IMG/VR virus record: IMGVR_UViG_3300029955_000001
DNA length: 64,000 nucleotides
From: a virus
Lineage: Duplodnaviria; Caudoviricetes
Direction: 5' to 3' (one strand)
Shown piece by piece: positions 1 to 16,649 of the stretch. Both the position numbers and the translations under genes were made by a program. How positions within the stretch are numbered: position 1 is the stretch's first letter; every line of letters starts with the position of its first letter. The notes below the pieces were generated by a model. It had not been told where the DNA came from. It ran no database searches and was given only the letters and a program-made list of their open reading frames with translations.

Positions 1-104
1 CTGTTGTCACTTCCTTTTACCTCTCCCTGGTAATTAATGGAGTAAGCATTACTGGTAATAGGAATTCTAAAAAAACCTTCTACTTCGATATATTTTTCGA
101 ACAT
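1..104 (-). CDS. Putative homing endonuclease, N-terminal fragment (NUMOD4-like), runs off the left edge
   Basis: Manual translation from ATG at 104, open to the edge: MFEKYIEVEGFFRIPITSNAYSINYQGEVKGSDN. Resembles the NUMOD4 pattern (F/W-x-x-IP...Y-x-I/V-x-x-x-G-x-V) of HNH homing endonucleases. Not in the ORF track. Confidence 0.55.
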   Translation of the reverse strand, partial: MFEKYIEVEGFFRIPITSNAYSINYQGEVKGSDN

Positions 105-167
105 GTTATTTACTTATGTTGTATCTACATAGTATACATATTAGAAAAGAATTTAATAATTTTACTT
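1..167 (-). mobile_element. Probable group I intron (5' part) interrupting the virion RNAP beta' gene
   Basis: The exon ends GGA GCT GAC TTT (G-A-D-F, ending in U), then AAG TAA. The DGD half of the catalytic motif is missing and a NUMOD4-like ORF follows. The intron core would lie outside the window. Confidence 0.6.
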
Positions 168-1625
168 AAAGTCAGCTCCTAGTCGTGATAATTTAGCACT
201 GTGTGGAATTGTACTATTTACAAACGCACCATCTTTAATAGGGAACTCATAAGCAGTGTGTTCAGCATCCATTGGTTCCCACTGATCATTCAGTTCTGAC
301 CGTACTTCTGATACTGTTGTTGTCTTTACAAAAGCTTTGCTAGGGTAAATACTACCAACACCAGTAACAGGATAACGTGTAATGAATATTGGAAATTTAT
401 TCAACTCAGTATAACAAGATAAATAAAGTAGTTCACAGAACGTCAATGGATGTACATCATCTTTATTTCTTTCCAATGGCAATTCGTCTATATCTTGAAT
501 TAGCTTGAAAGTGTTATCGGGTCCTTTATAAATAAGACCAAGATAGTGCCCTTCGATAATAATTGGTTTATGCCTGATAGCTTCTTCTGAGAAACTTGTA
601 AGGACTTTTTCTATTCCTTCATCTGTCATCCATTTATCGAAGTATTGTGGTTTTAAAGCTACTTCCTCACAATGTAAAGTATTAACATTGACCAGCTTAG
701 CTGGCGCTCCTACTTCTGTGAATACTTTAGATAAGAACCCATGTCGAATATGATATCGTGCTACAGGCATAATAGATTTTAATAACTGATACAACCCAAC
801 GATTGTGTTATTAAAACCTACAGTACCTGGCGCGCCTAAATAAGATACACTGGTATCCATTCCTGTAATGACATTACGTGTACCGTTCATCAAACCACGG
901 GTTGCCCATTTACCTAGTAAGAGTTTATTCTTACCTTCTAACATGGCTTTGATAGTATTGTAAATTTCGTTAAAAGTTAGTTGTAAGTTATACCGTGCTC
1001 TGTCTAGCATTTCGGCATTGGTCTTTACAGCACTTTCAGAAATTGTATTTGCTATTGTTAGTAGCTGTCGGTAAAGTTTATTGATTTCATCTTCACGTGG
1101 GCGGCCATCTGGGCCTATTTCTACATCTCGATAACCAGCAGGCATAACCAGTACTTTTGGCGTTAAAGCAACTTTCTTATATTTATTTATCATGAGAATG
1201 CTTTGTTCGCGTAACGGACTGCCGGTTTGCTCAAACTCTATATTTTCCCAATGTTCAAGGAAGAAATTGAATCCTGTTTTACCAACTAGATTATTAGATC
1301 TTTCAAAATTCTTTAGTTCTTCATTCCAGGTAACATACTCTGTACCGTTAATAATACCACCATACAAGCGTTTAAGCTTAACAACTGCTTCGTAGATTAT
1401 TGGATGAAAAATAGGTATCTTAATATCGATAAAAGAGAAACGAAATAACCGTCTGTCATCTCCTTCTTTACCAAAAATAAGTGTAGAAAACAAACCATCT
1501 GGGTTGAATAAATTACTAGAGCCATCAAAGATATCTAGCTTAGTAACAGGTCGCATATTTTGGAGTTTATTGGGTGTAAGCTCCAAAAGAGTTATGTTAA
1601 AAGGTATATCAGAACGTTGTGCCAT
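162..1625 (-). CDS. Virion RNA polymerase beta' N-terminal subunit (phiKZ gp180-like), probably exon 1
   Basis: 487 aa with beta'-like segments (LFNPDGLFSTLIFG, VLVMPAGYRD, MLEGKNKLLLGKWATR, RYPVTG), ending at LGADF, the start of the NADFDGD-type catalytic motif. Divergent from a gp181-like gene, as in phiKZ-like phages. Confidence 0.85.
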   Translation of the reverse strand: MAQRSDIPFNITLLELTPNKLQNMRPVTKLDIFDGSSNLFNPDGLFSTLIFGKEGDDRRLFRFSFIDIKIPIFHPIIYEAVVKLKRLYGGIINGTEYVTWNEELKNFERSNNLVGKTGFNFFLEHWENIEFEQTGSPLREQSILMINKYKKVALTPKVLVMPAGYRDVEIGPDGRPREDEINKLYRQLLTIANTISESAVKTNAEMLDRARYNLQLTFNEIYNTIKAMLEGKNKLLLGKWATRGLMNGTRNVITGMDTSVSYLGAPGTVGFNNTIVGLYQLLKSIMPVARYHIRHGFLSKVFTEVGAPAKLVNVNTLHCEEVALKPQYFDKWMTDEGIEKVLTSFSEEAIRHKPIIIEGHYLGLIYKGPDNTFKLIQDIDELPLERNKDDVHPLTFCELLYLSCYTELNKFPIFITRYPVTGVGSIYPSKAFVKTTTVSEVRSELNDQWEPMDAEHTAYEFPIKDGAFVNSTIPHSAKLSRLGADFK

Positions 1626-1708
1626 TAGGCTTCCTTTCTGTAATTAAAACAGATTACGCTAAAAGTATGAATAGTGACACTTAAAGCTTAACTCATTTGA
1701 GGTAATAC

Positions 1709-4700
1709 ATGGCTAATAAAACAAAGTTCGAATTAGACCAATTTGGATTCGATTCATCGTTAGATATTTCTAATCTTGATTTTAGCAAAGCACCTAAGAT
1801 TAAAAATGATCGATCGCCAACAACACATACTGCTATAGGAGTTGCGAAAGGTATAAAAAAGTCCGTTATTACTTCGGCTTTTATTACCAATGCAATTAAA
1901 GCTGCTCTTCCAAAAGGATATGGTACGGCAGCAGATTTTGTTGGAAAGTCCACAAGTGGCATTAAGAATCTATACAATGATACTGCTCGGGATATTAAAC
2001 CACTAATTAACGATATAAAACGGACAACAGATAAAGTTGTCACGGCAGCAGATTCGGCAATTCCAAAAAACATTGCTGAGAAAATAAAGAAATGGACAAA
2101 GATTGAACAGAGCGCGTATCGCAGTATGTCGCCGGAAGAACAACGCGATGCAGCTTTGCGCATGCAGCTAGGTGAGATTTTTAACTTACAAACGCAAACA
2201 ACATTAAAACAATCTGCCAGAGATACAGCTAGAGAAAACATTAAAACTGGACTAGAACATAGTAGACATAAAGATCAAATGTCGCAGCTGGACGCTATGC
2301 GGATTAGTCTTCAGCAGATAGCAAATTATCAGCAAAAAATAGATTCTGGTTTTCAGCGTAAATCTTTGGAACTACAGTTCCGCCATTACTACGTTGCAAA
2401 AGACACGTTAGAAGAAATGCGTGTTTTTAATACAAACGCAATGCTTCAGTATCAGACTATTGCAAAGAATACAGGCTTACCTGATTTTGTAAAGTTAAAG
2501 ACATCTGAACGCCTTAAAGAAGTTTTACGCAATAACTTTATTAACGCCGCTAGCGCTAAGATTGATGCAAAACGTAAAGCATTTTTTAAAGACTTTACTG
2601 ATAGTTTATTACGCCAAGCTAAAGGTAAGCTATCGGGCTTTAGCAACGGCGCTAGAGAAGGTATGGGATATGCTGATCACTTAGATCAAGCTGGTGGTAT
2701 GGCGAGTATGGCAGATAACCCGCATGAAGAACGTGGTGATATGGCAGGGACGTTTTTCGGAAGTTTATTATCTGGTTCACTAGGTACTTTTCTAGGTAAG
2801 AAAGCAAAACCACTAATAAATAAATATACTAAGGGGAAAGTTGGTAACAGCATTCATCGTGTTGGTCATAAGTTACAGTATTTTCACGACGATGCGCAAC
2901 AAGCCGCATTAGAAACAGCAAATAATTGGGACCCAAAGAAACATGGTAAAGTTCTAAATGCTGTTGCTAAGTTTCTTGGGGATGCTGTTAAGAACACAAC
3001 TATTTCATCTACGGGTTTAAAGAGCGATAATCTTAAAGACATGCAACAACCTGCTCCGTTTAGTAGGCAGATAGCAAAATCTATTACTGAAATTATCCCT
3101 GGTTATTTAGCACGCATGTTACGTGAAATGCAGATGACGCGTACAGGCAAACCATCTGAGCTTACGCATTATGATTTCACACGAAATAAATTTGTTGGGG
3201 AAACAACGCTTAGAAGAACTATTCATGAAAGCATTGTTAACAAGACCGCTGTTAAGGACATCAGAGCTAGCGCTGATAGAATAATTGATACTGTTGACAA
3301 GAATAAAAAATTATCACCAGAAGCACGTAAGCATATTGGTGAACAATTAGTTCGTAACAATATCATTAAGAATATATCGGGCACAAAACGTAATTTAACT
3401 GATGCTAAACATTTTCAAGGTAAAGCAGAGCCACATGCAGCTGCGTGGATTTCTGCTTATAACGAATATCTCGGTAACGATGAAGCTGGTCATAAAGAGA
3501 ATCATGTTCGTGAAATGTTTAGAGATGTCGGGCAACACATGGAAGATGTTCGTTCCACTGTTGAGGACTATGATACAGCTGGTTACGGTTCGCATCTTAG
3601 TAAAATGGGATTTACTAAGACCGGTGAAGACACAATCAGTGTTGCTACTCTTACGAAGAAAGAACGCGATCTTTTAATTAAGCTTGGTATTCTTTATAAG
3701 GATAGAAACTACATTAATGTTAGCGCTATTAATAGTGGTAATATTAAGTTGATTGAATCAATGGGTTTAAAAATACCTAGTGGCAACTATGTTAATTTGC
3801 AGGGAATTAGCGAGATGTACGCTAGTGGGTCTGGCGCAGATGAAGGTGATAGTGGTCCAGGTAGACGTCGTAGACGTTCTAGGGTTCCGTTTGGCCCTCG
3901 TAAACCACAAGGTCCTAGTGCTGGTTTACACGCTCCATCTTCTCATGCCGATCAGCAGTTTCAGCATAATACGCAACAACGCAATATGCAATCGAAATTC
4001 GATCATGAAACTCGAGAAGCTATGCGTCATCAAGGTAAACCGTTTGCACACCAGACTGGTAACAATCCGCTAAATAGTCCGGTTTATGAACATCATTTAA
4101 AGTTAGCAAAGGAACGTGCTAAGCAAATATCGAAAGAAAACGCGCAAGGACATTCTAACGCATCAAGGTTTGAAGCTTTCAAGAACTTTGGTAAGCGTAA
4201 GATGGCTGATTTGCATTCTTTTGCGGAACATCACCAAATTAATAATCGTGCACACGCCGCTGTTGGTGGGGTAAGGAATACCCTTGAAGACATGCTTCAT
4301 TTTGGAACGCATAAGGCATCAGAAGCTAAGACGATGTTTCACGGTGCTGTACATGAGGCACATGCTAAAGCAACAGCTTTTAAGGACTCAGTTAAAGAAG
4401 CAGATTTAAAGAATAAAGCTGCATCTCATACTGGCATGGCTAAAAATACTGCTTCAGGGTTGTTTGAAGCGGCGCATGATAAAGCGGTTGGTTGGAAAGA
4501 CAGAATCAAAGCTAAAGCAAAAGAAACAGTAACCGCAACGAAACACGCTGTTGAAGAATTAAGTAAGCACGGTATGTTCAAAAAACATATTGGGATGGCA
4601 GATTTAATTCCTGGTAAGAAAGGTAAGCCAGTATCTGCTTTAGCGTCAATCGATGCTACTCTAAAACGTATTGAGAAGAAACTTAAAGACGGCATTGGCA

Positions 4701-7700
4701 CAGGCGGTGGCACTGGTAAAGTAAAAGGTACGCACTGGTGGAATAAATCTGTGTTAGGTGCGGCCGGCGACCTAGGTATGGGCGCTGTACATCTTGCCGG
4801 ACATGCTGCTCATATGGCAAATAGTGTTGTTGGTGGTGCTTTTTCTAATGCTTGGAAAATTGGTAAGTTTGGTGTTAGTGCAACAGCTAACACACTTGGC
4901 TGGGGTAAAGACAAGCTAATGAACTTACGAGATGTCTGGGTAAAAGGAGAAGACAAACCACGTTTACTTGCTTCTAAATTAAGAAACGGTTATTACGTCG
5001 ATCAAAAGACAAGAAAACCTGTTAGAAAGTTTAAGGATATTACTGGCACGTTACTGGATGAAAACGGCGATATTGCTTTGTACGATTATGAAATACCTAG
5101 AGCTTATTTGAAAGGTAAGCTAGGAGCTGTTTTACTATCTTCTGTTGGTGCTGTATTCAAAGGTGTAAATAGTTTGGTTAACGCTTACACTGGTGTGATT
5201 GGCACTGCTGTTAAAGCAGGTATATGGACAGGTAAGAAATTATTTAGTTTAACAAAACGTCCACAAGACGTTTATTCCAGAGACGATCTTACTACGCCTA
5301 AATTAACAGCAAGAACAATGCGAGCAGGCGGTTATGTCTCAGCCGTCACTGGTAAAGTTATTAATCATCCTGGTGATATTGACGGCCCTGTAAACATGGT
5401 AGTAAATGGCAAAGTAGAGCAAGCAATGTCTGCTGCTGAGGTAGCTAGTGGTGTACTGGATAGGAATGGCAAACCAATTAAAACTGGTATTAGAAAACTA
5501 CTTGGCATAGCTGGCAGTATTATTGGTTTTGCTGGACGTCAAGCTATGTCAATTGGTAGAAGCATCAACAAGACCATTGGTCATGCTGTTACTGCTGGTA
5601 AACATGTTGTTGGTTTTGCTAAAGATACATTATTGCACGGTATTACCGGTTGGGGTAAGGATCACACTGGAACTAGCATTGGTAAAAAGGGTGCTGATAT
5701 TGGCATTAAATTACTAACAGAAATTCGCAACATATTAAAATCTAGATTACCAGAATCTAAGAAGCATATTCTTGGTGATATAGATGGAAGTGGAATTCGT
5801 GAAGGTAGTTTTCAAGATGAAGTGCGTAAAGGTTTAGTCCCAGGAGAATCTTCATTAGATGCTTACGCTAAAGCACATCCTTCTAGTGGTGGTAAAGGCG
5901 GTGTCCTTGGAATGCTTGGCGGGTTATTTGGTAAGAAAGATAAGGGTGAAGGTGGCGATGGTAAGAAAGACGAGGAAGGTCACCCAGTTCGTGATATGGT
6001 AGAAGGTGAGTTAGTTGAACGTGGTATTGAGAAAGGTGCTGGTAAGTTTGGTCGTGCTTTAAAGTGGACCAAAAACTTAGCAAAGGGAGGGGCTAGTAAA
6101 GGTCTTAAACTTCTTTCAAAAATACCTGGTTTAAGTAAGTTCGCTAAACTCGCAGCGATGTTAGGCGGTACTGCTGAAGCTGCTAATTTAGCCGGTAGTG
6201 CTTTATCAAGCACTAGTGCCGCGCCTGGTGTAATGGAAGCCGGTGGGGTTGCCAGTAAAGCGGGAATATTATCTAGAGTAGCAGGGATTGGTAAAGCTGG
6301 TTTAGGCATGGCTAAAGGCGCAATGAGTGGTATAGGTGGATTAGCAGGTAAACTACTCATGCCGTTGACTGCTCTTATGTCAGCTGGTGAAGGAATTGCT
6401 GGCGAAGCTAATGGCCAAAGAATAGATAGTATTGGTAAGGTTATCCCAAAAGGCTGGGGTATGCTTAACCCGTTTGAGTGGGCGATGAATGGCGGTCGTT
6501 ATGCTGGCAATAAAATTAATTCTGGTTTAGATAGCATTACTGGTGGTCAGGGTATAGGTAGTAAAATTTACGACTGGACGCATGGTGATGAAGCTAAGAA
6601 ACTATCAACAGCATCTACACCTGAAGCAATTGCAGCTGCTAAAGCTAGGATAGAAAAAGCCAAGATAGATAGAGCTAAAACACAAGCGGAAGCTAATGCA
6701 GCAGGTAATAATGCTTCTGGTGTTCCATCTACATCGGACGCTAATCGTTCTGTGAATTCAGCAGAAGACTTAACAAACGATGAACGTGATAAACTGACTA
6801 CAATGACGCATGGTCAGAAACTTGCGTACATGGCTTCTAAGAACACTGCTAAAACACATAAAGCTGAATCAGGGATTAATCCAGGTCCTGGGCCGATGCC
6901 TGTGTCAGCCGCCGCTTTAGCAGCACTTGCTCCTCCTAAACCTAAACCATTAACACCTGAAGAAAAAGCAGCGGCTGATAAAGCAAAAGCAGATAAAACT
7001 GCTAAAGCTAAAGCTGCTGCTGTAGCTGCCGCTCCTAAAGAAGAAGGTTTCTGGAGTAGAGTAGGCAGTAGCATATCAGAAGGAGCCAGTACCGCTTACA
7101 ATGGTGCAATTAACGCAACGGGAGCAGGGATTGATGCTGTTGCTAATGCTGACTATTCTGTAAAAGGCATAGCTAACATGGGACACCATGCTGTTGCTGG
7201 CGCTAGTAATCTGTACAAAAGCGCTGTTAGTGCAACAGCATCAGGTATTGAGAACACAGTCAATACGGTGAAGTCTGGTGTATCTGCTGTTAAAAGCGCG
7301 TATAACTCTGCTGTAGATACTGCTGCTGATGCAATGATGGCCGTAGCTGGTGCCCCTAGAAAGGCAGCAGAGGCCGCTAGAGCAACGTATAACAAAGCGA
7401 TTGCTCTCGCATCAGATGGAATGCTTGCTCTTGCCACAGGCCCTTCTATCGTAGGTAAAGCTTATAACGCTGCGGTAGATAAAACAGCAGACGCTATGTT
7501 AGTTGCTTCAGGACTTCCATCAAAAGCTGCAAAAACTGCTAGAGAGGAATATAACAAAGCAATTGCTGCTGCTGGTAGCGCGTATGGTTTTGCAGTAAGT
7601 ACTGTGAAGAGTGGGATAGCGGCTGTTGGTAAGTCCGTTTCTGGTGTCGTAAATGATGCAAAAGCCGGATGGAATGAAGTAGATGAAAACGGTAATGAAG

Positions 7701-9610
7701 TTAAAAAACCTACAACATTACCAGGTAAACCAGGAACTCATGCAATATCTACAGTAACTGGTAAACCTGTTAATAAACCATCAGTAACGCCCGCTACTGC
7801 TACAGGCGGCAATGGTGGTGGTGCTGGAGGGTCTGGTATTGGTTCTTCTGGCCCTGTTGGTGTTACAGTAGGAGATAAGAAAGGCCCTCGTGGGATTAGA
7901 AATAATAATCCTGGTAATATTAATTTTGCACATCAAGCAGGTGCAAAATTAGAAGATGGCCCAGGTGGGCGGTTTGCTGTATTTGCTACGATGGAAGAAG
8001 GTATTTCTGCTTTAGCTAGGCAGATACATCTTTTCGTTGGTCGAGGTATAAATACAGTTAATGCAATTATTAGCAAATACGCACCTCCGTCTGATAATAA
8101 CAACACTTCATCTTACATTAATTCTGTTTCTAAAAAGTTAGGCGTAACTGCTGATGACGCGTTAGATATTCATGATAACGCAATACTGAAAGGCATTATA
8201 ACAGCAATTACAACAGTTGAATGCGGGGCTGGTAAAGTCAAAGAGAAATGTATTGATGATGGTATTGCATTGTACTTTGGGAAACCAAAGACACCGTCTA
8301 CTGCTGCAAATATCCCAGACGCACCACCTCCTCCAACTGCTGCTAAACCAGCTAGTGTAATTGCTGCTGGCCCTAGTGGTGTAAATGCAGCTCCGGCTAC
8401 TGGTGCAAATAAAGTACCAGTTATATTAAAACCATCCGTACCTACATCGGTTGTATCGGGTGTTTCTTCTACTCCTGCTGCAAGTAGTGAGCCTAATGGC
8501 AAATCAGGAAACTGGGATGTTAATAAGTCACTTGCGTGCTTAAACTCAAATGCTGGCCAAAATAGTCAGGGTCGTTGTGCTGAGTTTGTAAGAAAGGCTG
8601 TAGAAGCTGGTGGGGTAACTTTAAAGAGAACTACGTCTGCAAAAGACTATGGTCCTAGTTTAGAGAAAGTAGGTTTCAAGCCTACCAATGACGGCGCGCC
8701 AAAAGCAGGTGATGTTGCTATTATTCAACCTATACCAGGCCACCAACATGGTCACGCTACAATGTTTAATGGTAGAAATTGGATATCGGATTTTATTCAG
8801 TTACACGGATATTACCCAGGTGATTCTTATCGTAAGGCAAAACCATCAGTAATATTCTACCGGCATGCTAGTATCGCTGGTGCTGGAGTAGGCGGAGCAT
8901 CGTCTAATGAAGGACCTACTGAAGCTGTTTCTAAAACTAGTGAAATGGACGATAGTAAGAAGAAGCCAAAAGTACCACCATCGACCGAATCTGGTTTACC
9001 GGTTAGTGCTAGTACAAAAACTTCTGATCAACCTGCTGTATCTGGTTCCGCTCCAGTTGTAGCCGCAATAGCTTCTTCAGCAAGTGTAAAAACTTCTGAT
9101 GAACCAGTGACTGGGAACGAAGATTCATCAGTTGGAAGAAGGAAACATGGCGGCGTGACTGTTCCAGTTAGTAATGTCACTCCTGGAATTGTATATGGTT
9201 CAAGTACTCCAGGAAGTAACAACTCGCAAACAGTAACACCTGTAACTCCAGCAACCAAAGTATTAGCTGACCAAGGTAACTTTAACAGGCAAACGATAGG
9301 TGGTTTTGCACCTCCTCGCTCTCCTGATATATTGGCTCAAGCTCAGTATCATAAAGAAGATAATAACAAGGCTTTAGGTAACGTTGGCGAAACATTAGAG
9401 AAATCTTACGAAGTTCATAAGAGTCAACTTGAAGTACTGAATAGGATAGCTGATTTAATTATGGCTAAAAGTTCAGGAAAAGGTTCTGAAGATCAAAGTA
9501 AACCTGAAACTCCGAGAGGAGGAGAAGGTGTAAATGGTGCTGTTAACAGAACGCCTCAGCCTGCATCAAGAGTTCCGGTTTCCATGGCTAAACGTGGTAA
9601 CTGGCGATAA
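1709..9610 (+). CDS. Giant tape-measure/tail lysin (phiKZ gp181-like) with lysozyme-like and CHAP-like domains
   Basis: 2633 aa, Ala/Gly-rich and helical. RGIRNNNPGNI muramidase-like motif near 7889; CAEFVRKAVEAGG...GDVAII...HGHATMFNGRNWISDF Cys/His peptidase motif near 8514-8865. Position next to the RNAP beta' gene fits. Confidence 0.85.
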   Translation: MANKTKFELDQFGFDSSLDISNLDFSKAPKIKNDRSPTTHTAIGVAKGIKKSVITSAFITNAIKAALPKGYGTAADFVGKSTSGIKNLYNDTARDIKPLINDIKRTTDKVVTAADSAIPKNIAEKIKKWTKIEQSAYRSMSPEEQRDAALRMQLGEIFNLQTQTTLKQSARDTARENIKTGLEHSRHKDQMSQLDAMRISLQQIANYQQKIDSGFQRKSLELQFRHYYVAKDTLEEMRVFNTNAMLQYQTIAKNTGLPDFVKLKTSERLKEVLRNNFINAASAKIDAKRKAFFKDFTDSLLRQAKGKLSGFSNGAREGMGYADHLDQAGGMASMADNPHEERGDMAGTFFGSLLSGSLGTFLGKKAKPLINKYTKGKVGNSIHRVGHKLQYFHDDAQQAALETANNWDPKKHGKVLNAVAKFLGDAVKNTTISSTGLKSDNLKDMQQPAPFSRQIAKSITEIIPGYLARMLREMQMTRTGKPSELTHYDFTRNKFVGETTLRRTIHESIVNKTAVKDIRASADRIIDTVDKNKKLSPEARKHIGEQLVRNNIIKNISGTKRNLTDAKHFQGKAEPHAAAWISAYNEYLGNDEAGHKENHVREMFRDVGQHMEDVRSTVEDYDTAGYGSHLSKMGFTKTGEDTISVATLTKKERDLLIKLGILYKDRNYINVSAINSGNIKLIESMGLKIPSGNYVNLQGISEMYASGSGADEGDSGPGRRRRRSRVPFGPRKPQGPSAGLHAPSSHADQQFQHNTQQRNMQSKFDHETREAMRHQGKPFAHQTGNNPLNSPVYEHHLKLAKERAKQISKENAQGHSNASRFEAFKNFGKRKMADLHSFAEHHQINNRAHAAVGGVRNTLEDMLHFGTHKASEAKTMFHGAVHEAHAKATAFKDSVKEADLKNKAASHTGMAKNTASGLFEAAHDKAVGWKDRIKAKAKETVTATKHAVEELSKHGMFKKHIGMADLIPGKKGKPVSALASIDATLKRIEKKLKDGIGTGGGTGKVKGTHWWNKSVLGAAGDLGMGAVHLAGHAAHMANSVVGGAFSNAWKIGKFGVSATANTLGWGKDKLMNLRDVWVKGEDKPRLLASKLRNGYYVDQKTRKPVRKFKDITGTLLDENGDIALYDYEIPRAYLKGKLGAVLLSSVGAVFKGVNSLVNAYTGVIGTAVKAGIWTGKKLFSLTKRPQDVYSRDDLTTPKLTARTMRAGGYVSAVTGKVINHPGDIDGPVNMVVNGKVEQAMSAAEVASGVLDRNGKPIKTGIRKLLGIAGSIIGFAGRQAMSIGRSINKTIGHAVTAGKHVVGFAKDTLLHGITGWGKDHTGTSIGKKGADIGIKLLTEIRNILKSRLPESKKHILGDIDGSGIREGSFQDEVRKGLVPGESSLDAYAKAHPSSGGKGGVLGMLGGLFGKKDKGEGGDGKKDEEGHPVRDMVEGELVERGIEKGAGKFGRALKWTKNLAKGGASKGLKLLSKIPGLSKFAKLAAMLGGTAEAANLAGSALSSTSAAPGVMEAGGVASKAGILSRVAGIGKAGLGMAKGAMSGIGGLAGKLLMPLTALMSAGEGIAGEANGQRIDSIGKVIPKGWGMLNPFEWAMNGGRYAGNKINSGLDSITGGQGIGSKIYDWTHGDEAKKLSTASTPEAIAAAKARIEKAKIDRAKTQAEANAAGNNASGVPSTSDANRSVNSAEDLTNDERDKLTTMTHGQKLAYMASKNTAKTHKAESGINPGPGPMPVSAAALAALAPPKPKPLTPEEKAAADKAKADKTAKAKAAAVAAAPKEEGFWSRVGSSISEGASTAYNGAINATGAGIDAVANADYSVKGIANMGHHAVAGASNLYKSAVSATASGIENTVNTVKSGVSAVKSAYNSAVDTAADAMMAVAGAPRKAAEAARATYNKAIALASDGMLALATGPSIVGKAYNAAVDKTADAMLVASGLPSKAAKTAREEYNKAIAAAGSAYGFAVSTVKSGIAAVGKSVSGVVNDAKAGWNEVDENGNEVKKPTTLPGKPGTHAISTVTGKPVNKPSVTPATATGGNGGGAGGSGIGSSGPVGVTVGDKKGPRGIRNNNPGNINFAHQAGAKLEDGPGGRFAVFATMEEGISALARQIHLFVGRGINTVNAIISKYAPPSDNNNTSSYINSVSKKLGVTADDALDIHDNAILKGIITAITTVECGAGKVKEKCIDDGIALYFGKPKTPSTAANIPDAPPPPTAAKPASVIAAGPSGVNAAPATGANKVPVILKPSVPTSVVSGVSSTPAASSEPNGKSGNWDVNKSLACLNSNAGQNSQGRCAEFVRKAVEAGGVTLKRTTSAKDYGPSLEKVGFKPTNDGAPKAGDVAIIQPIPGHQHGHATMFNGRNWISDFIQLHGYYPGDSYRKAKPSVIFYRHASIAGAGVGGASSNEGPTEAVSKTSEMDDSKKKPKVPPSTESGLPVSASTKTSDQPAVSGSAPVVAAIASSASVKTSDEPVTGNEDSSVGRRKHGGVTVPVSNVTPGIVYGSSTPGSNNSQTVTPVTPATKVLADQGNFNRQTIGGFAPPRSPDILAQAQYHKEDNNKALGNVGETLEKSYEVHKSQLEVLNRIADLIMAKSSGKGSEDQSKPETPRGGEGVNGAVNRTPQPASRVPVSMAKRGNWR

Positions 9611-9612
9611 GC

Positions 9613-9655
9613 TAGAGTGGTGCTGAAAGGCACCACTCTAATTATATTTTTTTGT
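9613..9655 (+). terminator. Intrinsic terminator
   Basis: TAGAGTGGTGC-tgaaag-GCACCACTCTA followed by a T-rich tract, just after the stop at 9610. Confidence 0.8.
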
Positions 9656-9672
9656 TTATATTGGAGTAAAAG

Positions 9673-11871
9673 ATGAATTTACAACCAGGTATGGTTAAAG
9701 ATAAAGATTGGATACGGCAATCTTTTTTAGTACAAGCTAAAGATTTAGATGCTGTCGATTATCAAAACAGAACATTTTCAAGCGCAAGTCTAAAATTTAC
9801 TGACACTACACCAGGTGGTAATTTCGCTATTAATCCACCTGCACAATTTACGCGTACAGCAGATCCAAAAGCTACTGCAATGTTTACTGATCCATCAGGC
9901 AGCACGTTCGAACGATACAGCATGGGATTTGCTGGAAGTAAAGGAATGGGTCGTTATTACAGTGAAGCGATTGACGATAACTCACAGTTGATACACATGC
10001 GTTTTGGTGTTCCTGATTTTAATTCGTTAACAACTTTTTTCACTGGCTTTTACAATACAGGAGCTAGTCAAATGGCTAGAACTGGTCGCGCGACTAGTAT
10101 AGCTTATACGTTAGGACAAGCAGCTGGTTTCATTGTTAGTATTTTAAGCTGGAAACTATTAGCTGTTCATTTAATAGGCGTAGCGGCTAGGTTCTTTTTA
10201 GCAAAGCCCAGTAGTAAATTTTATTATTTAAAACCAACCATGCCGTTGTATTGGAACGCAGTGCAAACGATGGTTAATCAAATTCTTGTTAATCGTGGTG
10301 TTATACCTCGCATTGGTGGTTCTGATCAATCGGCACTAGGTGGTGGTAATGGCTCTGGGGGCGGAAGCGATGCGTATCAATTCGATGCCGCTGCGATACA
10401 AACTTTAAATCAACAATTGCCGACAATATTCAAACTTGGTGGAGGCATTGACGTCTATTCATTGGCTGGTAGGGCACAACGTCTTGCACGCGCGCGCCAT
10501 AAAGAAATAGAACAAGCGCTTGACAATGGAACAGATTTACGTTTAGCCAATAACATGGGTGAGTTATCTACTTTTATTCAAGCTGCTGTGAAAAAAGAAT
10601 TAAAAATTGCTACTCCTATTTTTAAATCATATCTAGCTAGTTGGGCTGGCGGAACTGACGGGCACGGCGTTGTGCAAGCTGGTACTAATCAAGCTAGACC
10701 TGACCCGGCCAGTAGTGGTGCTGATTCAGAAAGTTTACCAGTAGCACCGTCTACTGCCGCACCAGATCCTACAAAAGCAGCCGATAACACGCAAAGTAAA
10801 CAAGCTGATGCAAATACTGCTGATGAAGGATTTATGAATTTCTTCATGAATGAACTAGATGACGGTAGTGCATTTGTTACATTCAGAGTAGATGCAACAG
10901 GTCATGTTGATAATAGCTATAGTAATCAAGTTGGAGAATCTGAATTATCGCAAAAAATAAACAGTATGTCTGCTTCGTCAAGATCTACTAGATTTAGTTT
11001 TGCTGGAGGTAACCTGGATGATGGTATTGTTGGTAAAGCAGTGGGTGAAATTGCGGGCGCTATAGGAGATTTTGCTTCGGGCGCAGCAGCTGGTTTAGGT
11101 ATCAGCGGTATAGCGGCTTTAGGAGGTTCTGCGTTTGTCGACATCCCAAAATACTGGCAACAGTCAGTAGCTTCTTTACCAAGAGCTTCTTACACGATTC
11201 AATTAAGAAGTCCTTACGGTAATCCTATATCACAAATGATTAACTTGTACATACCCCTGTGTATGCTGCTAGCTGGCGCTTTACCATTATCCACTGGTAA
11301 GCAATCTTACACTAGTCCGTTCTTATGTGAACTGTATGACAAAGGACGTTGTCAGGTTCGTCTTGGTATGATTGATTCTTTATCTATTACTCGCGGCACT
11401 GGTAATCTTGGTTTCAACACAGATGGTCATGCGATGGGTATTGATATTTCATTTTCAGTTGTAGACATGTCGTCTATAATGACAATGCCTATTTCACAAG
11501 GTTTTTCTATGACGTCATTAGCTTCTGGCGCTGTTAAATCAGCAACGGATGCAGCGGCTTCTGGTGTAACTAAAATATCAGGCGCAGGTGCTGGTATTAT
11601 CGAAGCTGGTGGTACTGCAATAGCATCTATAGGCGCTACATTCGACGATGATAACACATTCAGTGATTACATGGCTGTATTGGCTGGTATGAGTTTATCA
11701 GATCAAATTTATCAATTGAAGAAATTAAAACTTAATTTAACTCGTAACTTAGCTAACTGGAATAGTTGGAATAGCGCATCGCACTATGCTAGCTTTGCTG
11801 GTGATACGTTACCTGCTAGATTGATATCTGGTCTGTTCAAAGGCACCGCACGCGGTGGTGTTAGTAACTAA
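9673..11871 (+). CDS. Baseplate/tail structural protein (phiKZ gp182-like)
   Basis: 732 aa immediately after the gp181-like gene; motifs GGNFAINPPAQFTRTAD, GMGRYYSEAIDD, SYTSPFLCELYDKGR recalled from this family. Confidence 0.7.
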   Translation: MNLQPGMVKDKDWIRQSFLVQAKDLDAVDYQNRTFSSASLKFTDTTPGGNFAINPPAQFTRTADPKATAMFTDPSGSTFERYSMGFAGSKGMGRYYSEAIDDNSQLIHMRFGVPDFNSLTTFFTGFYNTGASQMARTGRATSIAYTLGQAAGFIVSILSWKLLAVHLIGVAARFFLAKPSSKFYYLKPTMPLYWNAVQTMVNQILVNRGVIPRIGGSDQSALGGGNGSGGGSDAYQFDAAAIQTLNQQLPTIFKLGGGIDVYSLAGRAQRLARARHKEIEQALDNGTDLRLANNMGELSTFIQAAVKKELKIATPIFKSYLASWAGGTDGHGVVQAGTNQARPDPASSGADSESLPVAPSTAAPDPTKAADNTQSKQADANTADEGFMNFFMNELDDGSAFVTFRVDATGHVDNSYSNQVGESELSQKINSMSASSRSTRFSFAGGNLDDGIVGKAVGEIAGAIGDFASGAAAGLGISGIAALGGSAFVDIPKYWQQSVASLPRASYTIQLRSPYGNPISQMINLYIPLCMLLAGALPLSTGKQSYTSPFLCELYDKGRCQVRLGMIDSLSITRGTGNLGFNTDGHAMGIDISFSVVDMSSIMTMPISQGFSMTSLASGAVKSATDAAASGVTKISGAGAGIIEAGGTAIASIGATFDDDNTFSDYMAVLAGMSLSDQIYQLKKLKLNLTRNLANWNSWNSASHYASFAGDTLPARLISGLFKGTARGGVSN

Positions 11872-11876
11872 GCGTC

Positions 11877-11914
11877 ATAGAGACCAGGATAAATCCTGGT
11901 CTCTATTTATGCCG
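11877..11914. terminator. Bidirectional hairpin between convergent genes, with TATGCCG flank
   Basis: ATAGAGACCAGGA-taaa-TCCTGGTCTCTAT, then TTATGCCG. Confidence 0.8.
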
Positions 11915-13436
11915 TTTGTGGAAGATTAGAAGAAGTTTGAGACGGTCCTGCGGGAGGAGGGCTTATGCTTCCTGTTGTCTTAATGTTGTTGTCATAAACG
12001 TCCGCGTACATTAGTTGTGGTCCAACGGATATATTTGTTCCAGCTAATACTACAGTTGCGCTTACCACAGTGGAACCATCACTAAAAGTGTAATAGACAA
12101 TAGTTTCTATATCACCATTCGATAATGTGCGAGGAGGTGGCGCAGACACATTAGCCGATGATAAAGGTTCTGTCATGCAAAGTGAACTAGTGATCATTGG
12201 TGTAGAAACATCAGGTGTTCCGTTATTTGTACTTGTTGTAGTTAATGGCACTGGCGGTGCTGTGACTAGTGTGCCGTTAACTACAGTAGTTGCACTGCCA
12301 TTATCCGATATACTTGTTGTAGTTGAAGTATACTGCATAATTGTCGGATCGGTAGAACCGCTAACATTAATATTACCAGACACGGGCGCTGTATTCGGGA
12401 ATTGATTACCTAGTAATGTGTTAACATCTGTGCTTGACGATGGGTAAGCTGCTCCTAATAATGCTAGTTGATCAGGCGTAGCTGCATCTACCGGCACTGT
12501 AAAATCTGTTGACGGTAAAGCTGGAGCAGAGGACATCGCTGAACAAGATAAACTATTTTGAAGATCAGGACTGCCATCTTGTAAAGCAGTAATGTCTCCA
12601 CCAACACCGTTAACAGGACTGTTGTATACGTTCCAATTAGGGTTTACAGCAGCATATGTTGATGTGATGTTTGCGCTATTTGATAACAAATCAGCTGTTG
12701 TAGCGTTAGGACCATTATTAAAATTTGAACTAATGTTATTTAGTACATTTGGATTCAACGACAACAATGTGCCGCCACCAACAGAATTAGCCATTGCTGT
12801 AATCGACTGCAAATCTGAACTCTGCACAGCATTTGGTAAAACATTACCTGCAATGTTTGTTAAAATACCTTTGTCACTAATTCCACATGTGAGAGCACTA
12901 AAAGAGTTTGGTATTCCAGAACCCATCGCAATTTTAAGATACCCTGATGTTACTTCAGCAATAGCCCCAGGGTCGTCAATTGAAAAAGAATCATGACAAG
13001 CATTTCCATTAATCATTGCACCAATAGCAGCTATATCACCAAATGCTGTACCGACTAAAGTTTTTGTTAAACCATTAACTGTAGCAGTTATGCCAGAGTT
13101 AGATGTTATTCCGTTAATTATAGAAGAAGCCGCGCTAGATGAAAGCTGGCTCAGTACTGATCCCATTTCCGGCATAGATGAAGCTACACGAGCTGTTAAT
13201 GTTGCTGCGCTTAATAATGCACTTGCAGCGCTTACAGCAGTAGCTGCTAATGAAGAAGCCGTGCTACTCATGCTTTTACCACCGCGTAAAGAATTAGCAA
13301 TGGTGGGATTTGTAGCTGCTGTAATAGCAGCTACATCGGTAATAGGTGTATTGTTATTTAGCGTGTATACGTCTGCTGTTGCAAGAGTATCTTTTGCGCC
13401 GCTAATAAAACTTGGCGTTGCTAAAGGATTTGACAT
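11907..13436 (-). CDS. Ser/Thr/Ala-rich probable virion structural protein
   Basis: Long ORF (track 515 aa; likely start MSNPL at 13436) with a low-complexity Pro/Thr-rich C-terminus. Confidence 0.6.
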   Translation of the reverse strand: MSNPLATPSFISGAKDTLATADVYTLNNNTPITDVAAITAATNPTIANSLRGGKSMSSTASSLAATAVSAASALLSAATLTARVASSMPEMGSVLSQLSSSAASSIINGITSNSGITATVNGLTKTLVGTAFGDIAAIGAMINGNACHDSFSIDDPGAIAEVTSGYLKIAMGSGIPNSFSALTCGISDKGILTNIAGNVLPNAVQSSDLQSITAMANSVGGGTLLSLNPNVLNNISSNFNNGPNATTADLLSNSANITSTYAAVNPNWNVYNSPVNGVGGDITALQDGSPDLQNSLSCSAMSSAPALPSTDFTVPVDAATPDQLALLGAAYPSSSTDVNTLLGNQFPNTAPVSGNINVSGSTDPTIMQYTSTTTSISDNGSATTVVNGTLVTAPPVPLTTTSTNNGTPDVSTPMITSSLCMTEPLSSANVSAPPPRTLSNGDIETIVYYTFSDGSTVVSATVVLAGTNISVGPQLMYADVYDNNIKTTGSISPPPAGPSQTSSNLPQTA

Positions 13437-13447
13437 ATTCAATTTCC

Positions 13448-13490
13448 TAAACAAAAAAAAATAGGATAGAGATATATCTCTATCCTATCA
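13448..13490 (-). terminator. Intrinsic terminator
   Basis: Palindrome ATAGGATAGAGATATATCTCTATCCTAT preceded on + by an A9 tract (U tract on -). Confidence 0.75.
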
Positions 13491-13492
13491 AT

Positions 13493-14008
13493 TTAAATTG
13501 CTATAATTAATTCTGGGTATTTTGAATAATCCACATCTTTCGGACGTTGATTTTCTTTAAACAAAATACGTAATTCTTCAAATTCTTCAATAACGCGATT
13601 ACGTTGTTTTGGCCGTATTACGATCTTGCCTGGACCCCAAAGATAATAATGTTCAAATGGAAGAGTTGATTCAATTAACAACTGCTTCATTTCTTCGTTC
13701 TGTTCGATCTTGTAATAATTCGCAGCTTTAATGCACGTTAAGAATTCTTTAAAAGTACCTCTAGTTAAATCCTTAGCATAGTTCTTTGCTTTTATACCAA
13801 CCAGACCGCGCAGCTTATCATCTTTTTCTTTTGTACCAATGTAGTGATAAAAACCTTCCATTGAATTGAATGATCCAAAATAGGGATGGATAAACGGCGA
13901 ATAGTAAAACTGAGATAGCATTTGTCCTAATTTTGTCTTACCAGTAATCCAGATATTACAAAACTCAACGCCATCTTTAGAATTGTTATCAGACTGTACA
14001 ATATTCAT
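13493..14008 (-). CDS. NADAR-like / T4 gp30.3-like protein
   Basis: MLSQFYYSPFIHPYFGSFNSMEGFYHY resembles the NADAR LSNF...PF...F-x-S-x-E motif. Confidence 0.45.
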   Translation of the reverse strand: MNIVQSDNNSKDGVEFCNIWITGKTKLGQMLSQFYYSPFIHPYFGSFNSMEGFYHYIGTKEKDDKLRGLVGIKAKNYAKDLTRGTFKEFLTCIKAANYYKIEQNEEMKQLLIESTLPFEHYYLWGPGKIVIRPKQRNRVIEEFEELRILFKENQRPKDVDYSKYPELIIAI

Positions 14009-14080
14009 TTTATCAAGCCTTATTACTATTTTATTTTTTTGTCCTAGTTTAATTAAACTAGAAAAGACGATTGTTTGTAG

Positions 14081-14554
14081 TTAATCCTCTGTTGTTTTAT
14101 CAGCTAAGATTTGAACATATGGAACAGCCTCATCTTTTTCCGGTTGTTCTAAGTTTTCTATAAACTCAGCAAAGCTTTCTCTGTTACCAAATTGTACTTC
14201 GGTAGAGTGTAATGTTGTCATACCATTACCGTGATAAGCTTTAATTACAAGATCAATTTTTATTATTTGTAGAAAACGTAATGCTTTACAAAAGACCTTC
14301 CATGTCATTTGCGGCTTGGCAAACTCTTTAGTGAGATTGCCTCGCATCGATGTTTGGTCTCTTTTATTATTAGGAATATTACGCTGTGTGTCTATGATGT
14401 AATCTTGTAAAAAACTACCAAATTTAGGAGGCATTATACCTAAGTCTAATAGCATTTTTCTAAATAAACGTGACAGCACGCCATTGGGACCACTAGTCTT
14501 TGTTATTTCTTTATCGTGAGCTAATAAGATTCTAGCCATTTTATTTCTAGCCAT
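14081..14554 (-). CDS. Hypothetical protein (phiKZ-like conserved type)
   Basis: 157 aa ORF in a minus-strand gene run. Confidence 0.7.
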   Translation of the reverse strand: MARNKMARILLAHDKEITKTSGPNGVLSRLFRKMLLDLGIMPPKFGSFLQDYIIDTQRNIPNNKRDQTSMRGNLTKEFAKPQMTWKVFCKALRFLQIIKIDLVIKAYHGNGMTTLHSTEVQFGNRESFAEFIENLEQPEKDEAVPYVQILADKTTED

Positions 14555-14609
14555 TTTTTTTATCCAGTCCGTTGGATTATTTTAAACAATAAATAATTCT
14601 TTATTGATA

Positions 14610-15170
14610 TTAAGAAACACTAACTTCAATTAACTTCTTTGTAATTTCACGTAGATTAATGAAAAGATTAGTAAGCATTCTAAGATTATACTCTGGGACG
14701 CCATATTGAGCGGTATCAGATTCCTCCATTATTTCACATAACTTAATACCAGCTTCTTTAAATATTTCTACAGCTTTTGGTACATCAACATAATAACCAT
14801 CACTAGTAATTAAAAAATGATCTAAGGTCATACTTCTTGATTCAGCTATACCCCATTCCCTAGGAATTTTTTTATCGTACTTAATGATAACAACAGCTTC
14901 TTTCAGTTTCTTAATATAGGTTTCAATATCAGGGTACAGTGGTTGTATGGTTATGCTTAAACCAACAGATACACTATAATTAGTTAATTTATTGCTATTT
15001 AATTCCTTTAGTAAAGTTTCACATAATTTTCTATTAGGAGCAAAAGGTGATTCTTTTATTATTTCCTTCTTAGGATTATTAAGACTAAATAATGATTTAA
15101 GATACTTAACTAGTTCACTAAACCACATAACATTTTCTAACCTCCAAACGTTATTCATCGTATACCTCAT
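14610..15170 (-). CDS. Hypothetical protein
   Basis: 186 aa ORF, co-oriented with its neighbours. Confidence 0.7.
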   Translation of the reverse strand: MRYTMNNVWRLENVMWFSELVKYLKSLFSLNNPKKEIIKESPFAPNRKLCETLLKELNSNKLTNYSVSVGLSITIQPLYPDIETYIKKLKEAVVIIKYDKKIPREWGIAESRSMTLDHFLITSDGYYVDVPKAVEIFKEAGIKLCEIMEESDTAQYGVPEYNLRMLTNLFINLREITKKLIEVSVS

Positions 15171-15247
15171 TATAATGATATGTTACTAAGATAATTTGCA
15201 ATAACACATAAGTATGATCACATACAACTTAATTAAAAGGATTTATC

Positions 15248-15673
15248 ATGTCACTCTCTAATAATGAAGTTATACTAGATAGCGAAGAAAGTGTACTGTC
15301 GTATACCCACGCTAAAAGACTCTTCATTGTGGAGAGTATGTTACATGAAGGTAAACTTCCAGAAGATCCTGCTGAGAAGAAAGTGCTTCTTAATGCGCTT
15401 GACGGCATGGATAAGATGGCAATTGGACGAATGCGTATTAAGATCGACGAGAAAGCCAATAAGAATATGGGGCAAGCTGCTGCTTTAGTAGCTCAGCTGT
15501 TATCATCTGGCAATATAGCGCATATGTATAATGTACCAAATGGCACAAATCGAGATGCACCGTTGTTAGGTAGTGATGTTCCAGCACCAGACATTGTCAA
15601 TGGTGAAACAGCTATTAATCCATTAGGTACGAATTACGAAGAATTTATGAATAAGATTAAAACGGAAGCATAG
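15248..15673 (+). CDS. Hypothetical protein
   Basis: 141 aa, AAGGA RBS upstream, followed by a hairpin. Confidence 0.75.
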   Translation: MSLSNNEVILDSEESVLSYTHAKRLFIVESMLHEGKLPEDPAEKKVLLNALDGMDKMAIGRMRIKIDEKANKNMGQAAALVAQLLSSGNIAHMYNVPNGTNRDAPLLGSDVPAPDIVNGETAINPLGTNYEEFMNKIKTEA

Positions 15674-15684
15674 AATTAGCTGAT

Positions 15685-15717
15685 ACGACTACGAGAAATG
15701 TTTCTTCTCGTAGTCGT
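15685..15717 (+). terminator. Hairpin after the 15248-15673 gene
   Basis: ACGACTACGAGAA-atgtttc-TTCTCGTAGTCGT. Confidence 0.6.
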
Positions 15718-15799
15718 TCGATCTCGGTAACGCATCGTCAGTTCCTATGTGACCTTTTCAACCATTGCATAGTTGATATTAGAACGTGGCTGCTTTATT

Positions 15800-15856
15800 C
15801 CCTATATCAGATTACCCTGTGTTACTAGGATAGTCTGATATGGGTAATATATGCCG
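15800..15856. terminator. Imperfect hairpin with TATGCCG flank
   Basis: CCCTATATCAGATTA...TAGTCTGATATGGG, then TATGCCG at 15850-15856, just past the stop at 15861. Confidence 0.55.
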
Positions 15857-15860
15857 TCTT

Positions 15861-16571
15861 CTAATTCGGTTTGAGGATACTGAAATGTGAAACGTCGATG
15901 AGAGTTAGACTTATAAGTGGCGAAGCCAGCACCTCTAACGCCTTGAAGGGGTGTGTAGTTTCTTTCATAGTCTTCTTCAACTCTGCATCAGTTGGTGTTT
16001 TAACGAAGTATATAGCTGGTACAAGCAAAGTTACAGTTGGAAGCTGTGTTGCCTTAAATGCTTCACCTTGCATGTTCATCCATTCTTCGTAATCGTATTT
16101 TATTATAATCGCATACGTTTTACAATGCACGGGTGTGAGATCTTTGGTAGGTATAGATACCAACTCCACAGGAGCTAAGCCATCTAACCATACAGAAATT
16201 ACTTTACCAAATTCTTCCATCTCCTCACCGGATAAAATATACGGATGAGTATTAACTACAATCTTTAAACCATCGTGATATGGTCGTGTGATTGCTTGTT
16301 CCGCCATAACACTCACTAGGTGTCGTAGTAAGCTTATCGCGTTTGTTACAACAGAATGTTTCAGTGTGGTAACATCGCGATTTTTATACAACTCTTTATA
16401 CAAGTCTAAATCAATTCCCTCAAAATCATCACTAAGACGTTTTTGATAGTTTTCATCGACCGATAATTTTTCAGCAATATTCTGATCCAAAATTGCGATA
16501 GTGCCAAGTCTTGTATCTAGCAGAACATCTAAGTCTACGTAGATAGTTTCTAGTTTCTTACTATTGGGCAT
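15861..16571 (-). CDS. Conserved phage protein, possible HAD-like fold
   Basis: 236 aa; N-terminal IYVDLDVLLDT resembles HAD motif I (hhhDxD). Confidence 0.55.
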   Translation of the reverse strand: MPNSKKLETIYVDLDVLLDTRLGTIAILDQNIAEKLSVDENYQKRLSDDFEGIDLDLYKELYKNRDVTTLKHSVVTNAISLLRHLVSVMAEQAITRPYHDGLKIVVNTHPYILSGEEMEEFGKVISVWLDGLAPVELVSIPTKDLTPVHCKTYAIIIKYDYEEWMNMQGEAFKATQLPTVTLLVPAIYFVKTPTDAELKKTMKETTHPFKALEVLASPLISLTLIDVSHFSILKPN

Positions 16572-16649
16572 TGTAAGTCACGTGATCAGATTGTTTAACA
16601 GTCCATAAAGCTTTTGCTTTGATAGACGCTCTTGGTATTTTTGTTTCTA

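Follow-up and report, generated by a model that had tools for sequence, protein, structure and literature searches.

In an uncultivated peat phage, a phiKZ-like jumbo phage (chimallivirus), the gene for the N-terminal beta-prime subunit of the virion RNA polymerase (RNAP) is, almost certainly, interrupted at a phenylalanine codon by a mobile group I intron of 1789 nucleotides (nt), which is spliced out and carries an open reading frame (ORF) for an HNH endonuclease. The phage is represented by the IMG/VR virus record IMGVR_UViG_3300029955_000001, a single record of 165,072 bases, and the window, i.e., the whole stretch of 64,000 nt that was analyzed, covers bases 14946-78945 of that record. 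The interrupted gene lies on the minus strand at the left edge of the window, with most of the intron outside the window, to the left. Positions beyond that edge are given in the coordinates of locus L001, which comprises record bases 1-17000 (the G000:C1 numbering has the same coordinates); a window coordinate equals the L001 coordinate minus 14945. The insertion falls after the second base of the Phe codon in the magnesium-binding motif, GAC TT/T GAT GGC GAT (a slash within a motif marks the splice site), and the parts of the interrupted gene are as follows:

Window 169..1625, minus strand: exon 1 of the virion RNAP beta-prime N-terminal subunit gene (ORF, phrog_2986, identity to FLC9 gp41, alignment).
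Window 168..169, minus strand: 5' splice site, with the exon ending at U169 and the intron beginning at U168 (RNA contigs, terminal-G rule, U-G guide pair).
Window 105..168, minus strand: intron 5' leader of 64 nt, with the P1-extension strand (fold of the ORF-deleted intron, motif positions).
Window 1..104, minus strand: intron endonuclease ORF, first 34 codons plus 2 bases within the window, continuing for 1200 nt past the left edge.
L001 15049..13745, minus strand: whole endonuclease ORF, 434 codons (Pfam, identity to phiKZ gp179, model).
L001 13744..13325, minus strand: ribozyme core with guide, P2-P9.1 and terminal G13325 (RF00028, guide pairing, covariation).
L001 13739..13731, minus strand: guide sequence AUCAGAGUC (pairing with both exon ends).
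L001 13324..13156, minus strand: exon 2 including the stop codon, (F)DGDTVSS...LTDG, 56 residues (reading frame, homolog alignment).
L001 15113..13325, minus strand: whole intron, 1789 nt (exon alignment and RNA contigs).

The minus-strand ORF that contains exon 1 extends from window position 1625 to 162, encodes 487 amino acids (aa) and ends ...SRLGADFK, followed by the stop TAA at 164..162. TTT, at 170..168, is the Phe codon, and an exon that ends within it therefore has U as its last base. On the same strand, an ATG at 104..102, 63 nt past the Phe codon and 57 nt past the stop, opens the next ORF, which leaves the window leftwards. The ORF end, the exon-terminal U and the 63-nt distance had all been noted, with the strand left unstated, in a preliminary description of the sequence, and were confirmed. 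Exon 1 consists of codons 1-485 and the first two bases of codon Phe486, its 3' end being ...GGA GCT GAC TT. A second exon starting with the DGD codons and preceded by a terminal G had been expected further to the left, and this is what was found: after a G at L001 13325, the sequence continues T GAT GGC GAT ACT... in a frame that is open for 56 codons, with exon 2 beginning (T)GATGGCGAT and encoding DGDTVSS.... Joining of the two exons gives a 542-aa protein in which the GADFDGD motif is whole again (...LGADFDGDTVSS...). This product can be aligned end to end with the uninterrupted homologs FLC9 gp41 (542 aa) and RSF1 ORF041 (538 aa) and reads GADFDGDT in that alignment, in keeping with the earlier proposal that splicing restores the active site.

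The ORF matched positions 5-485 of the 539-position PHROG profile phrog_2986, 'RNA polymerase beta subunit' (E = 6e-185). A tblastn search with the ORF returned 314 jumbo-phage records, headed by Burkholderia phage FLC9 (gp41, 60% identity) and followed by the Ralstonia phages RP12, RSF1 and RSL2, and several of the matches carry the annotation virion RNA polymerase beta-prime subunit. In FLC9, RSF1 and phiKZ, the gene is situated between a divergent gene for a giant gp181-like cell-wall hydrolase and a large beta gene; the order here is identical, and the position of the gp181-like gene therefore marks the locus as the virion polymerase locus. Because of this homology and of the gp181-like, gp180-like, gp178-like gene order, the gene is identified as the counterpart of phiKZ gp180, the N-terminal part of the beta prime of the virion enzyme, in keeping with the virion RNAP beta' gene that had originally been proposed. 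That the subunit is packaged in the virion is inferred solely from its homology to phiKZ gp180, a protein annotated in the phiKZ record as 'structural head protein.'

Evidence for splicing came from environmental RNA. Contigs of three RNA runs and one DNA run were compared with L001 5400-16700; these were assembled contigs and not raw reads, and as such they report presence only and neither amount nor strand. In RNA runs X11 and X14, one contig each lacks exactly 1789 nt, with position 15113/15114 joined to 13323/13324 and with 29 and 72 nt on the shorter sides of the joint. The joint is ambiguous by 1 nt because both flanking bases are T, and two considerations, the terminal-G rule and the U-G pairing to the guide, place the cut after TT. 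The contigs of DNA run X5 (records 26 and 27) pass straight through both splice sites and retain the intron. As these contigs come from an independent run and are collinear across both intron ends, a sequencing error that had hidden a continuous GADFDGD, an objection raised in the preliminary description, does not account for the break. The exact junction foreseen there is present in the RNA contigs, and it was concluded that the intron is excised exactly, giving a 542-aa frame with an intact GADFDGD motif.

A junction of a different kind was also present in X11 and X14, namely a back-joint from 13746 to 13324 (again with a 1-nt ambiguity), which on the RNA strand connects G13325 to U13747, the base with which the stop codon of the ORF begins, as expected from group I circularisation at an internal site. 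It appears to represent a 423-nt circle of the ribozyme core (L001 13325-13747), freed from the ORF-bearing 5' segment. The second intron of the neighboring beta gene, described below, likewise gave a back-joint, connecting its terminal G to a site just past its endonuclease ORF (L001 6944-7302, 359 nt), in a contig of high depth (166). Since the circularisation cut in the beta-prime intron falls exactly before the endonuclease stop, it would leave an ORF RNA that lacks a stop codon and could shut off endonuclease synthesis after splicing.

The RNA between the endonuclease ORF and exon 2 has the features of a group I ribozyme. Infernal matched it to the full length (positions 1-253) of the Rfam model RF00028 with 51.9 bits (cut-off 50, E = 3.7e-11), which places a group I core between the endonuclease ORF and exon 2 and agrees with the intron originally suggested for the DFDGD motif; a search of the whole genome with the same model found exactly four matches in the record, all within the beta-prime and beta genes. 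The guide, AUCAGAGUC, lies 6 nt past the ORF stop codon and forms nine consecutive pairs with the ligated exons GACUU/UGAU, five with the last bases of exon 1 (GACUU) and four with the first bases of exon 2 (UGAU). These include a U-G pair at the 5' splice site, which group I introns require. The 9-bp pairing has a calculated energy of -11.5 kcal/mol and a single such site exists in the intron, while a 40-nt stretch of random sequence with the same composition has a chance of about 0.9% of containing such guide pairing. The last bases of the intron are ...UGUAAG, the terminal G being L001 13325. Near the 5' end, intron positions 11-24 (window 158..145, UAUUAAAUUCUUUU) form the 5' strand of a predicted 14-bp P1 extension, the partner of which is supplied by the last 14 nt of the endonuclease ORF region, i.e., by its last codons, 1.3 kilobases (kb) downstream; the ORF would therefore be looped out within P1, in a loop of 1.3 kb. 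The predicted core that follows the guide comprises P2, P3 (AUCUC paired with GAGAU), P4-P6 with a large P5 insert, P7 (GACUAU paired with AUAGUC), P8 and P9, and ends in P9.1, a hairpin of 10 bp, followed by the terminal G. Between the 5' strand of P7 and P3', the subgroup IA position, there are two hairpins, UCCGCAAGGA and GACCGAUC..GAUCCGUC, as judged from the general RF00028 model and from folds. Subgroup IA introns have extra P7.1 and P7.2 helices, which are typical of phage introns. By analogy with other group I introns, splicing would be self-catalysed and initiated by guanosine.

These features bear directly on a reading in which the gene is naturally split at GADF, with a free-standing HNH gene flanked by two pieces that are translated independently. 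Division of the beta and beta-prime genes into separate subunits is known from jumbo phages (PMC7598289), and a long-read transcriptome study did not see the predicted phiKZ introns spliced (PMC10914365). In the peat phage, however, exon 2 has no start codon and would, in frame, begin at Asp, the three magnesium-binding aspartates would be separated from each other, the intervening RNA forms a complete group I core with a matching guide, and the RNA contigs contain the precise junction. Together, these observations render a natural split barely credible.

Related introns in other phages allowed the ribozyme structure to be compared across genomes. The closest relatives of the endonuclease (72%, 53%, 48%, and 46% identity) are all encoded by other uncultivated phages from peat or soil and share the same context, following an exon-1 ORF of 485-491 aa, beside a gp181-like gene and ahead of the beta gene. 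In the three readable orthologs, the exon-1 ORF ends GADF-stop, SADFKEC-stop, and GADFPKD...-stop, and GGAGUCC lies just past the endonuclease stop in all three. In the orthologous loci L014 and L016, exon 2 starts with C (Phe codon TT/C) and the guide has AUCG, as opposed to AUCA facing U in the peat phage, which is read from these sequences as a compensatory change in P10. In a consensus fold of the three orthologous ribozymes, 25 of 80 pairs remain paired through changes on both sides, including pairs in P2, P3, P6, and P8. P7 is invariant among the three and provides no covariation information. Coming from a small sample of three sequences, this covariation lends modest independent support to the proposed core.

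Several points nevertheless weigh against a spliced, mobile intron. The RNA support consists of assembled contigs, the shorter side of one joint measures only 29 nt, and the intervening stretch is marked 'between: not known.' The DNA control is a single run, and contigs drop rare variants, so that a rare intron-less DNA allele might contaminate the RNA libraries. The RF00028 score of 51.9 is barely over the cut-off of 50. Finally, when exon 1 was searched against viral_contigs and metagenome_contigs, the matches were all to distant relatives (44% and 42% identity, respectively, the latter, in L011, being intron-less), and no intron-less allele or intron-less close relative of the phage emerged, so that neither a target for the endonuclease nor mobility was observed.

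The second of these points leads to a distinct explanation, in which the joined form would be carried-over DNA of an intron-less strain and the gene would simply be disrupted in the peat phage. RNA libraries can contain DNA, contigs reveal neither strand nor level, and the presence of introns varies among phiKZ relatives. On the other hand, all four introns of the locus, one in beta prime and three in beta, are exactly joined in the RNA contigs and none is joined in the DNA run, and the back-joints of the DFDGD intron and of the second beta intron arise when RNA circularises and could not come from a DNA allele; a rare intron-less DNA contaminant could not account for such circle junctions. 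Ribozyme core, guide, and covariation are all present as well. Furthermore, four broken exons in its virion polymerase genes would leave a phage inviable, yet the stretch recurs in about 20 public runs from peat and permafrost (2019 to 2025), eight of which are metatranscriptomes. DNA carry-over is for these reasons a highly improbable source of the joined form.

The 434-aa product of the intron ORF is, according to domain matches and a structural model, an I-HmuI-like HNH endonuclease. Pfam identified HNH_3 at residues 168-212 (E = 5.8e-11, 42.3 bits versus a cut-off of 24.8) and NUMOD1 (E = 3.7e-9), together with a weak match to I-HmuI_NUMOD-like. The preliminary description had called for a search of the ORF for HNH, which thus succeeded, and had described the start of the ORF as NUMOD4-like; the endonuclease assignment stood (HNH_3, NUMOD1, and the I-HmuI fold), whereas Pfam NUMOD4 gave no match to the intron ORF even at E<=10, and only a visual resemblance remains. 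An AlphaFold model built from 28 homologs had a mean predicted local distance difference test (pLDDT) score of 89.8, and Foldseek returned a single significant match in the PDB, I-HmuI (1U3E; E = 2.3e-9, probability 1.00), with the whole target covered. A sequence search of the PDB with the endonuclease gave no match.

The modules of the protein follow each other in the order of an N-terminal HNH-like unit that has no catalytic His, an intact HNH unit, and three NUMOD1-like helix-turn-helix modules. In the model, residues 1-105 and 115-215 show the same strand-helix pattern, followed by the three helix-turn-helix modules. In the first unit, the His of the HNH motif is missing and HNH_3 reaches a sub-threshold 18.3 bits, while BLAST comparison of residues 1-115 with 116-225 was not significant (E = 0.23). 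A tandem HNH arrangement with a dead first module is likely; the case for duplication consists of the weak HNH_3 match and the repeated secondary-structure pattern of the model. In the second unit, H169, N189, H190, N202, and H214 are invariant across the 28 homologs. The alignment of the endonuclease with phiKZ gp179 is collinear from residue 1 onwards and covers 303 residues at 34% identity (E = 9e-59).

The gene for the beta subunit of the virion polymerase is adjacent and lies to the left of the window on the minus strand (L001 5463-13150); it encodes 1525 aa once its exons are joined. Comparison with FLC9 gp40 delimited the exons as L001 13150..11345, 10023..8380, 6943..6029, and 5675..5466. 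The intervening introns and the gene on the other side of the interrupted gene are as follows:

L001 11344..10024, minus strand: beta intron 1 (55 bits; RNA skip of 1321 nt; site RGD/LPIRK).
L001 8379..6944, minus strand: beta intron 2 (92.5 bits; RNA skip of 1436 nt; site SDRDD/PKRVNF).
L001 6028..5676, minus strand: beta intron 3 (56.6 bits; RNA skip of 353 nt; site GVGD/KGVF; no ORF).
Window 1709..9610, plus strand: gp181-like gene, 2633 aa, divergently transcribed (PHROG phrog_3201 and phrog_873).

The sites SDRDD/PKRVNF and GVGD/KGVF are taken here, by comparison with E. coli beta, to be conserved active-centre motifs of beta. Beta intron 2 contains an HNH ORF of 331 aa (L001 7317-8312, minus strand) with 49.5% identity to PhiPA3 gp210 over 97% of its length. 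Beta intron 1 encodes a nuclease of a different type (L001 10434-11294, minus strand), called as 159 aa, whose frame is open upstream to an ATG at 11294 except for a TAA at codon 19 (11240..11238) and contains Cys/His-rich repeats in its upstream part; it could be a decaying gene or one that is read through or re-initiated. In the 2633-aa gp181-like protein, the N-terminal region matches a 'tail fiber' PHROG, and the C-terminal region matches endolysin and transglycosylase PHROGs.

For the beta-prime intron, the data show that the gene is interrupted in DNA, that its RNA occurs joined at the predicted bond, and that joining restores the catalytic motif. In the proposed mechanism, the ORF product would, to judge from its family, nick intron-less alleles near the DFDGD codons, and repair from an intron-bearing copy would then spread the intron by homing. 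By analogy with PhiPA3 gp210 (PMC11620839), the endonuclease may also harm co-infecting relatives or lower their yield, a role against intron-less RNAP alleles that the preliminary description had raised. With the ORF located within P1, translating ribosomes would open the P1 extension, and it may be speculated that translation and splicing might interfere with each other.

Whether the endonuclease benefits the phage is a separate matter. There is a substantial minority chance that the intron splices and its endonuclease brings the phage nothing, the element being a selfish or decaying homing intron that is kept solely because an imprecise loss would destroy the active site. Decay does occur at this locus, where the ORF of beta intron 1 has an in-frame TAA at codon 19 and beta intron 3 is devoid of an ORF; in addition, no intron-less close relative was found that could serve as a target, and the first HNH-like module is only a weak, sub-threshold match in Pfam. 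Yet the 434-aa ORF is intact and its five HNH residues are invariant in the 28 homologs, homologs of 46-72% identity occupy the same position in other phages, pointing to purifying selection, and the enzyme of the sister intron is 49.5% identical to PhiPA3 gp210, for which a competitive advantage was measured (PMC11620839).

The phage itself is known from a fragment. IMG/VR classes the record as linear, and CheckV estimates its completeness at 58%. An identical intron endonuclease protein occurs on ten contigs, the longest of which has 287,693 bases; the full genome is therefore probably near 288 kb, in agreement with the CheckV estimate, and the 165-kb record would be a fragment of it. A megablast search of the locus against the phage collection gave zero matches.

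For annotation, the gene requires a joined coding sequence, as gene callers otherwise give a truncated subunit that is devoid of two of the three catalytic aspartates, plus an orphan piece of 55 aa. Group I splicing of jumbo-phage polymerase genes has rarely been documented, and here all four introns of the locus are spliced in peat metatranscriptome contigs.

The closest known system is that of phiKZ gp180 and gp179, in which the same gene, for the N-terminal part of the virion beta prime, is interrupted in the same motif and has the same neighbors, gp181 and gp178. In the phiKZ reference record, NC_004629, gp180 is still annotated to end at ...LGAD-stop, followed by gp179 and then by an unannotated gap of 500 nt. 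A group I core (92 bits) is present in this gap, as is an open frame, FDGDTVSFNAVYSEEAI..., in which an unannotated exon of 53 codons, FDGDTVSF...KQRD, lies 1.4 kb downstream; the second exon and the core, between gp179 and gp178, fall within 3446-4888 of locus L004 (NC_004629, 183328-191233). As in the peat phage, the ORF is located in the P1 loop with the guide after it, and the P2 loop CGAAAU is common to both. The phiKZ splice site is 2 nt upstream of the peat-phage site, between the Asp and Phe codons (GAT/TTC), and its guide, AAGUCC, which is situated 3'-terminally in the gp179 ORF and pairs with GGAU/UU, differs from the peat-phage guide. The product of gp179 is shorter (357 versus 434 aa). 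The two ribozyme cores are about 44% identical, within the range of 37-59% for this core and the other introns examined, and core identity of this order does not establish that the RNA part and the phiKZ intron descend from a common ancestor. Introns in phiKZ gp180 are on record in the literature (PMC11512511, citing Mesyanzhinov, 2002, and Ceyssens, 2014), and the gp180 intron has been drawn (PMC5105663, Fig. 7). Splicing is seen in the peat-phage RNA contigs, whereas it was not seen in phiKZ long reads (PMC10914365).

In Escherichia phage Goslar, the beta-prime N-terminal gene is broken at GGD/FDGD, and an Intron_gpI feature, Goslar_00229, is annotated. Downstream of a gp179-like ORF, Goslar_00230, comes a group I core scoring 67.7 bits; like the phiKZ intron, this one separates the Asp codon from the Phe codon, and the record has no exon join. 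Both phiKZ and Goslar have an endonuclease-bearing intron in this motif. For AR9, whose RNAP introns figured in the preliminary description, the transcriptome paper limits its mention of an intron to gene g189. In Vibrio phage VP4B, a group I core of 51.2 bits separates two annotated pieces of the beta-prime N-terminal gene, with the insertion after the whole motif (exon 1 ...GGDYDGD-stop) and with no endonuclease ORF.

A survey of 60 of the 314 homologous records, sampled at even spacing, found a break at or near the motif in five: phiKZ, Goslar, PDCC-1, VP4B, and AhC3_1. Lineages differ in the bond that is invaded: the phiKZ and Goslar introns separate the Asp codon from the Phe codon, those of the peat phage, L014, and L016 follow the second base of the Phe codon, and that of VP4B follows the whole of DYDGD. 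Aeromonas phage AhC3_1 was considered as a fourth insertion position on account of its exon 1, which ends GGDFDGK-stop, and was not used, as there was no Rfam match and exon 2 was not delimited. In Photobacterium phage PDCC-1 (L007 4880-6640), exon 1 runs to ...LGGD-stop, the second piece, as annotated, begins with VVDNKQ, and the 3' intron end is near-identical to that of VP4B, with an intervening group I match of only 38.7 bits. The YDGD codons are absent from the whole fetched PDCC-1 locus, reflecting either a deletion or error in the record or an unusual join. A more far-reaching and rather unlikely idea is that the 15 nt of DFDGD form a contested landing site, invaded at no fewer than three bonds by introns with P1-loop ORFs whose guides were retargeted in step, and that the four introns of the peat-phage locus would together form a multi-site weapon, aimed at the virion polymerase genes that co-infecting relatives carry.

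The endonuclease shares its fold with I-HmuI from the DNA polymerase intron of Bacillus phage SPO1 (PDB 1U3E), a strand-specific nicking enzyme. Host gene and phage group differ, and I-HmuI has 174 aa and one HNH module, as compared with 434 aa and a second, degenerate module in the peat-phage protein. The intron endonuclease PhiPA3 gp210, from an intron in the beta gene gp211/209, has been shown experimentally to interfere with phiKZ, and the competitive advantage that it gives has been measured (Birkholz et al., 2024; PMC11620839). In PhiPA3, as here, a group I intron with an HNH nicking endonuclease is inserted within an active-site motif of a chimallivirus virion polymerase gene. The gp210 intron is in beta and not in beta prime, and its direct counterpart is the second beta intron of the peat phage, the third intron of the locus, which shares the DD/ site. 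Compared with that type, the endonuclease of the DFDGD intron has only about 31% identity and possesses an additional N-terminal module. The locus adjoins a close counterpart of the gp210 'weapon' intron and is a natural candidate in which several intron endonucleases might act jointly in phage competition. As a whole, the arrangement is already known from phiKZ and its relatives, to which the peat-phage intron adds one member, leaving the understanding of the mechanism unchanged.

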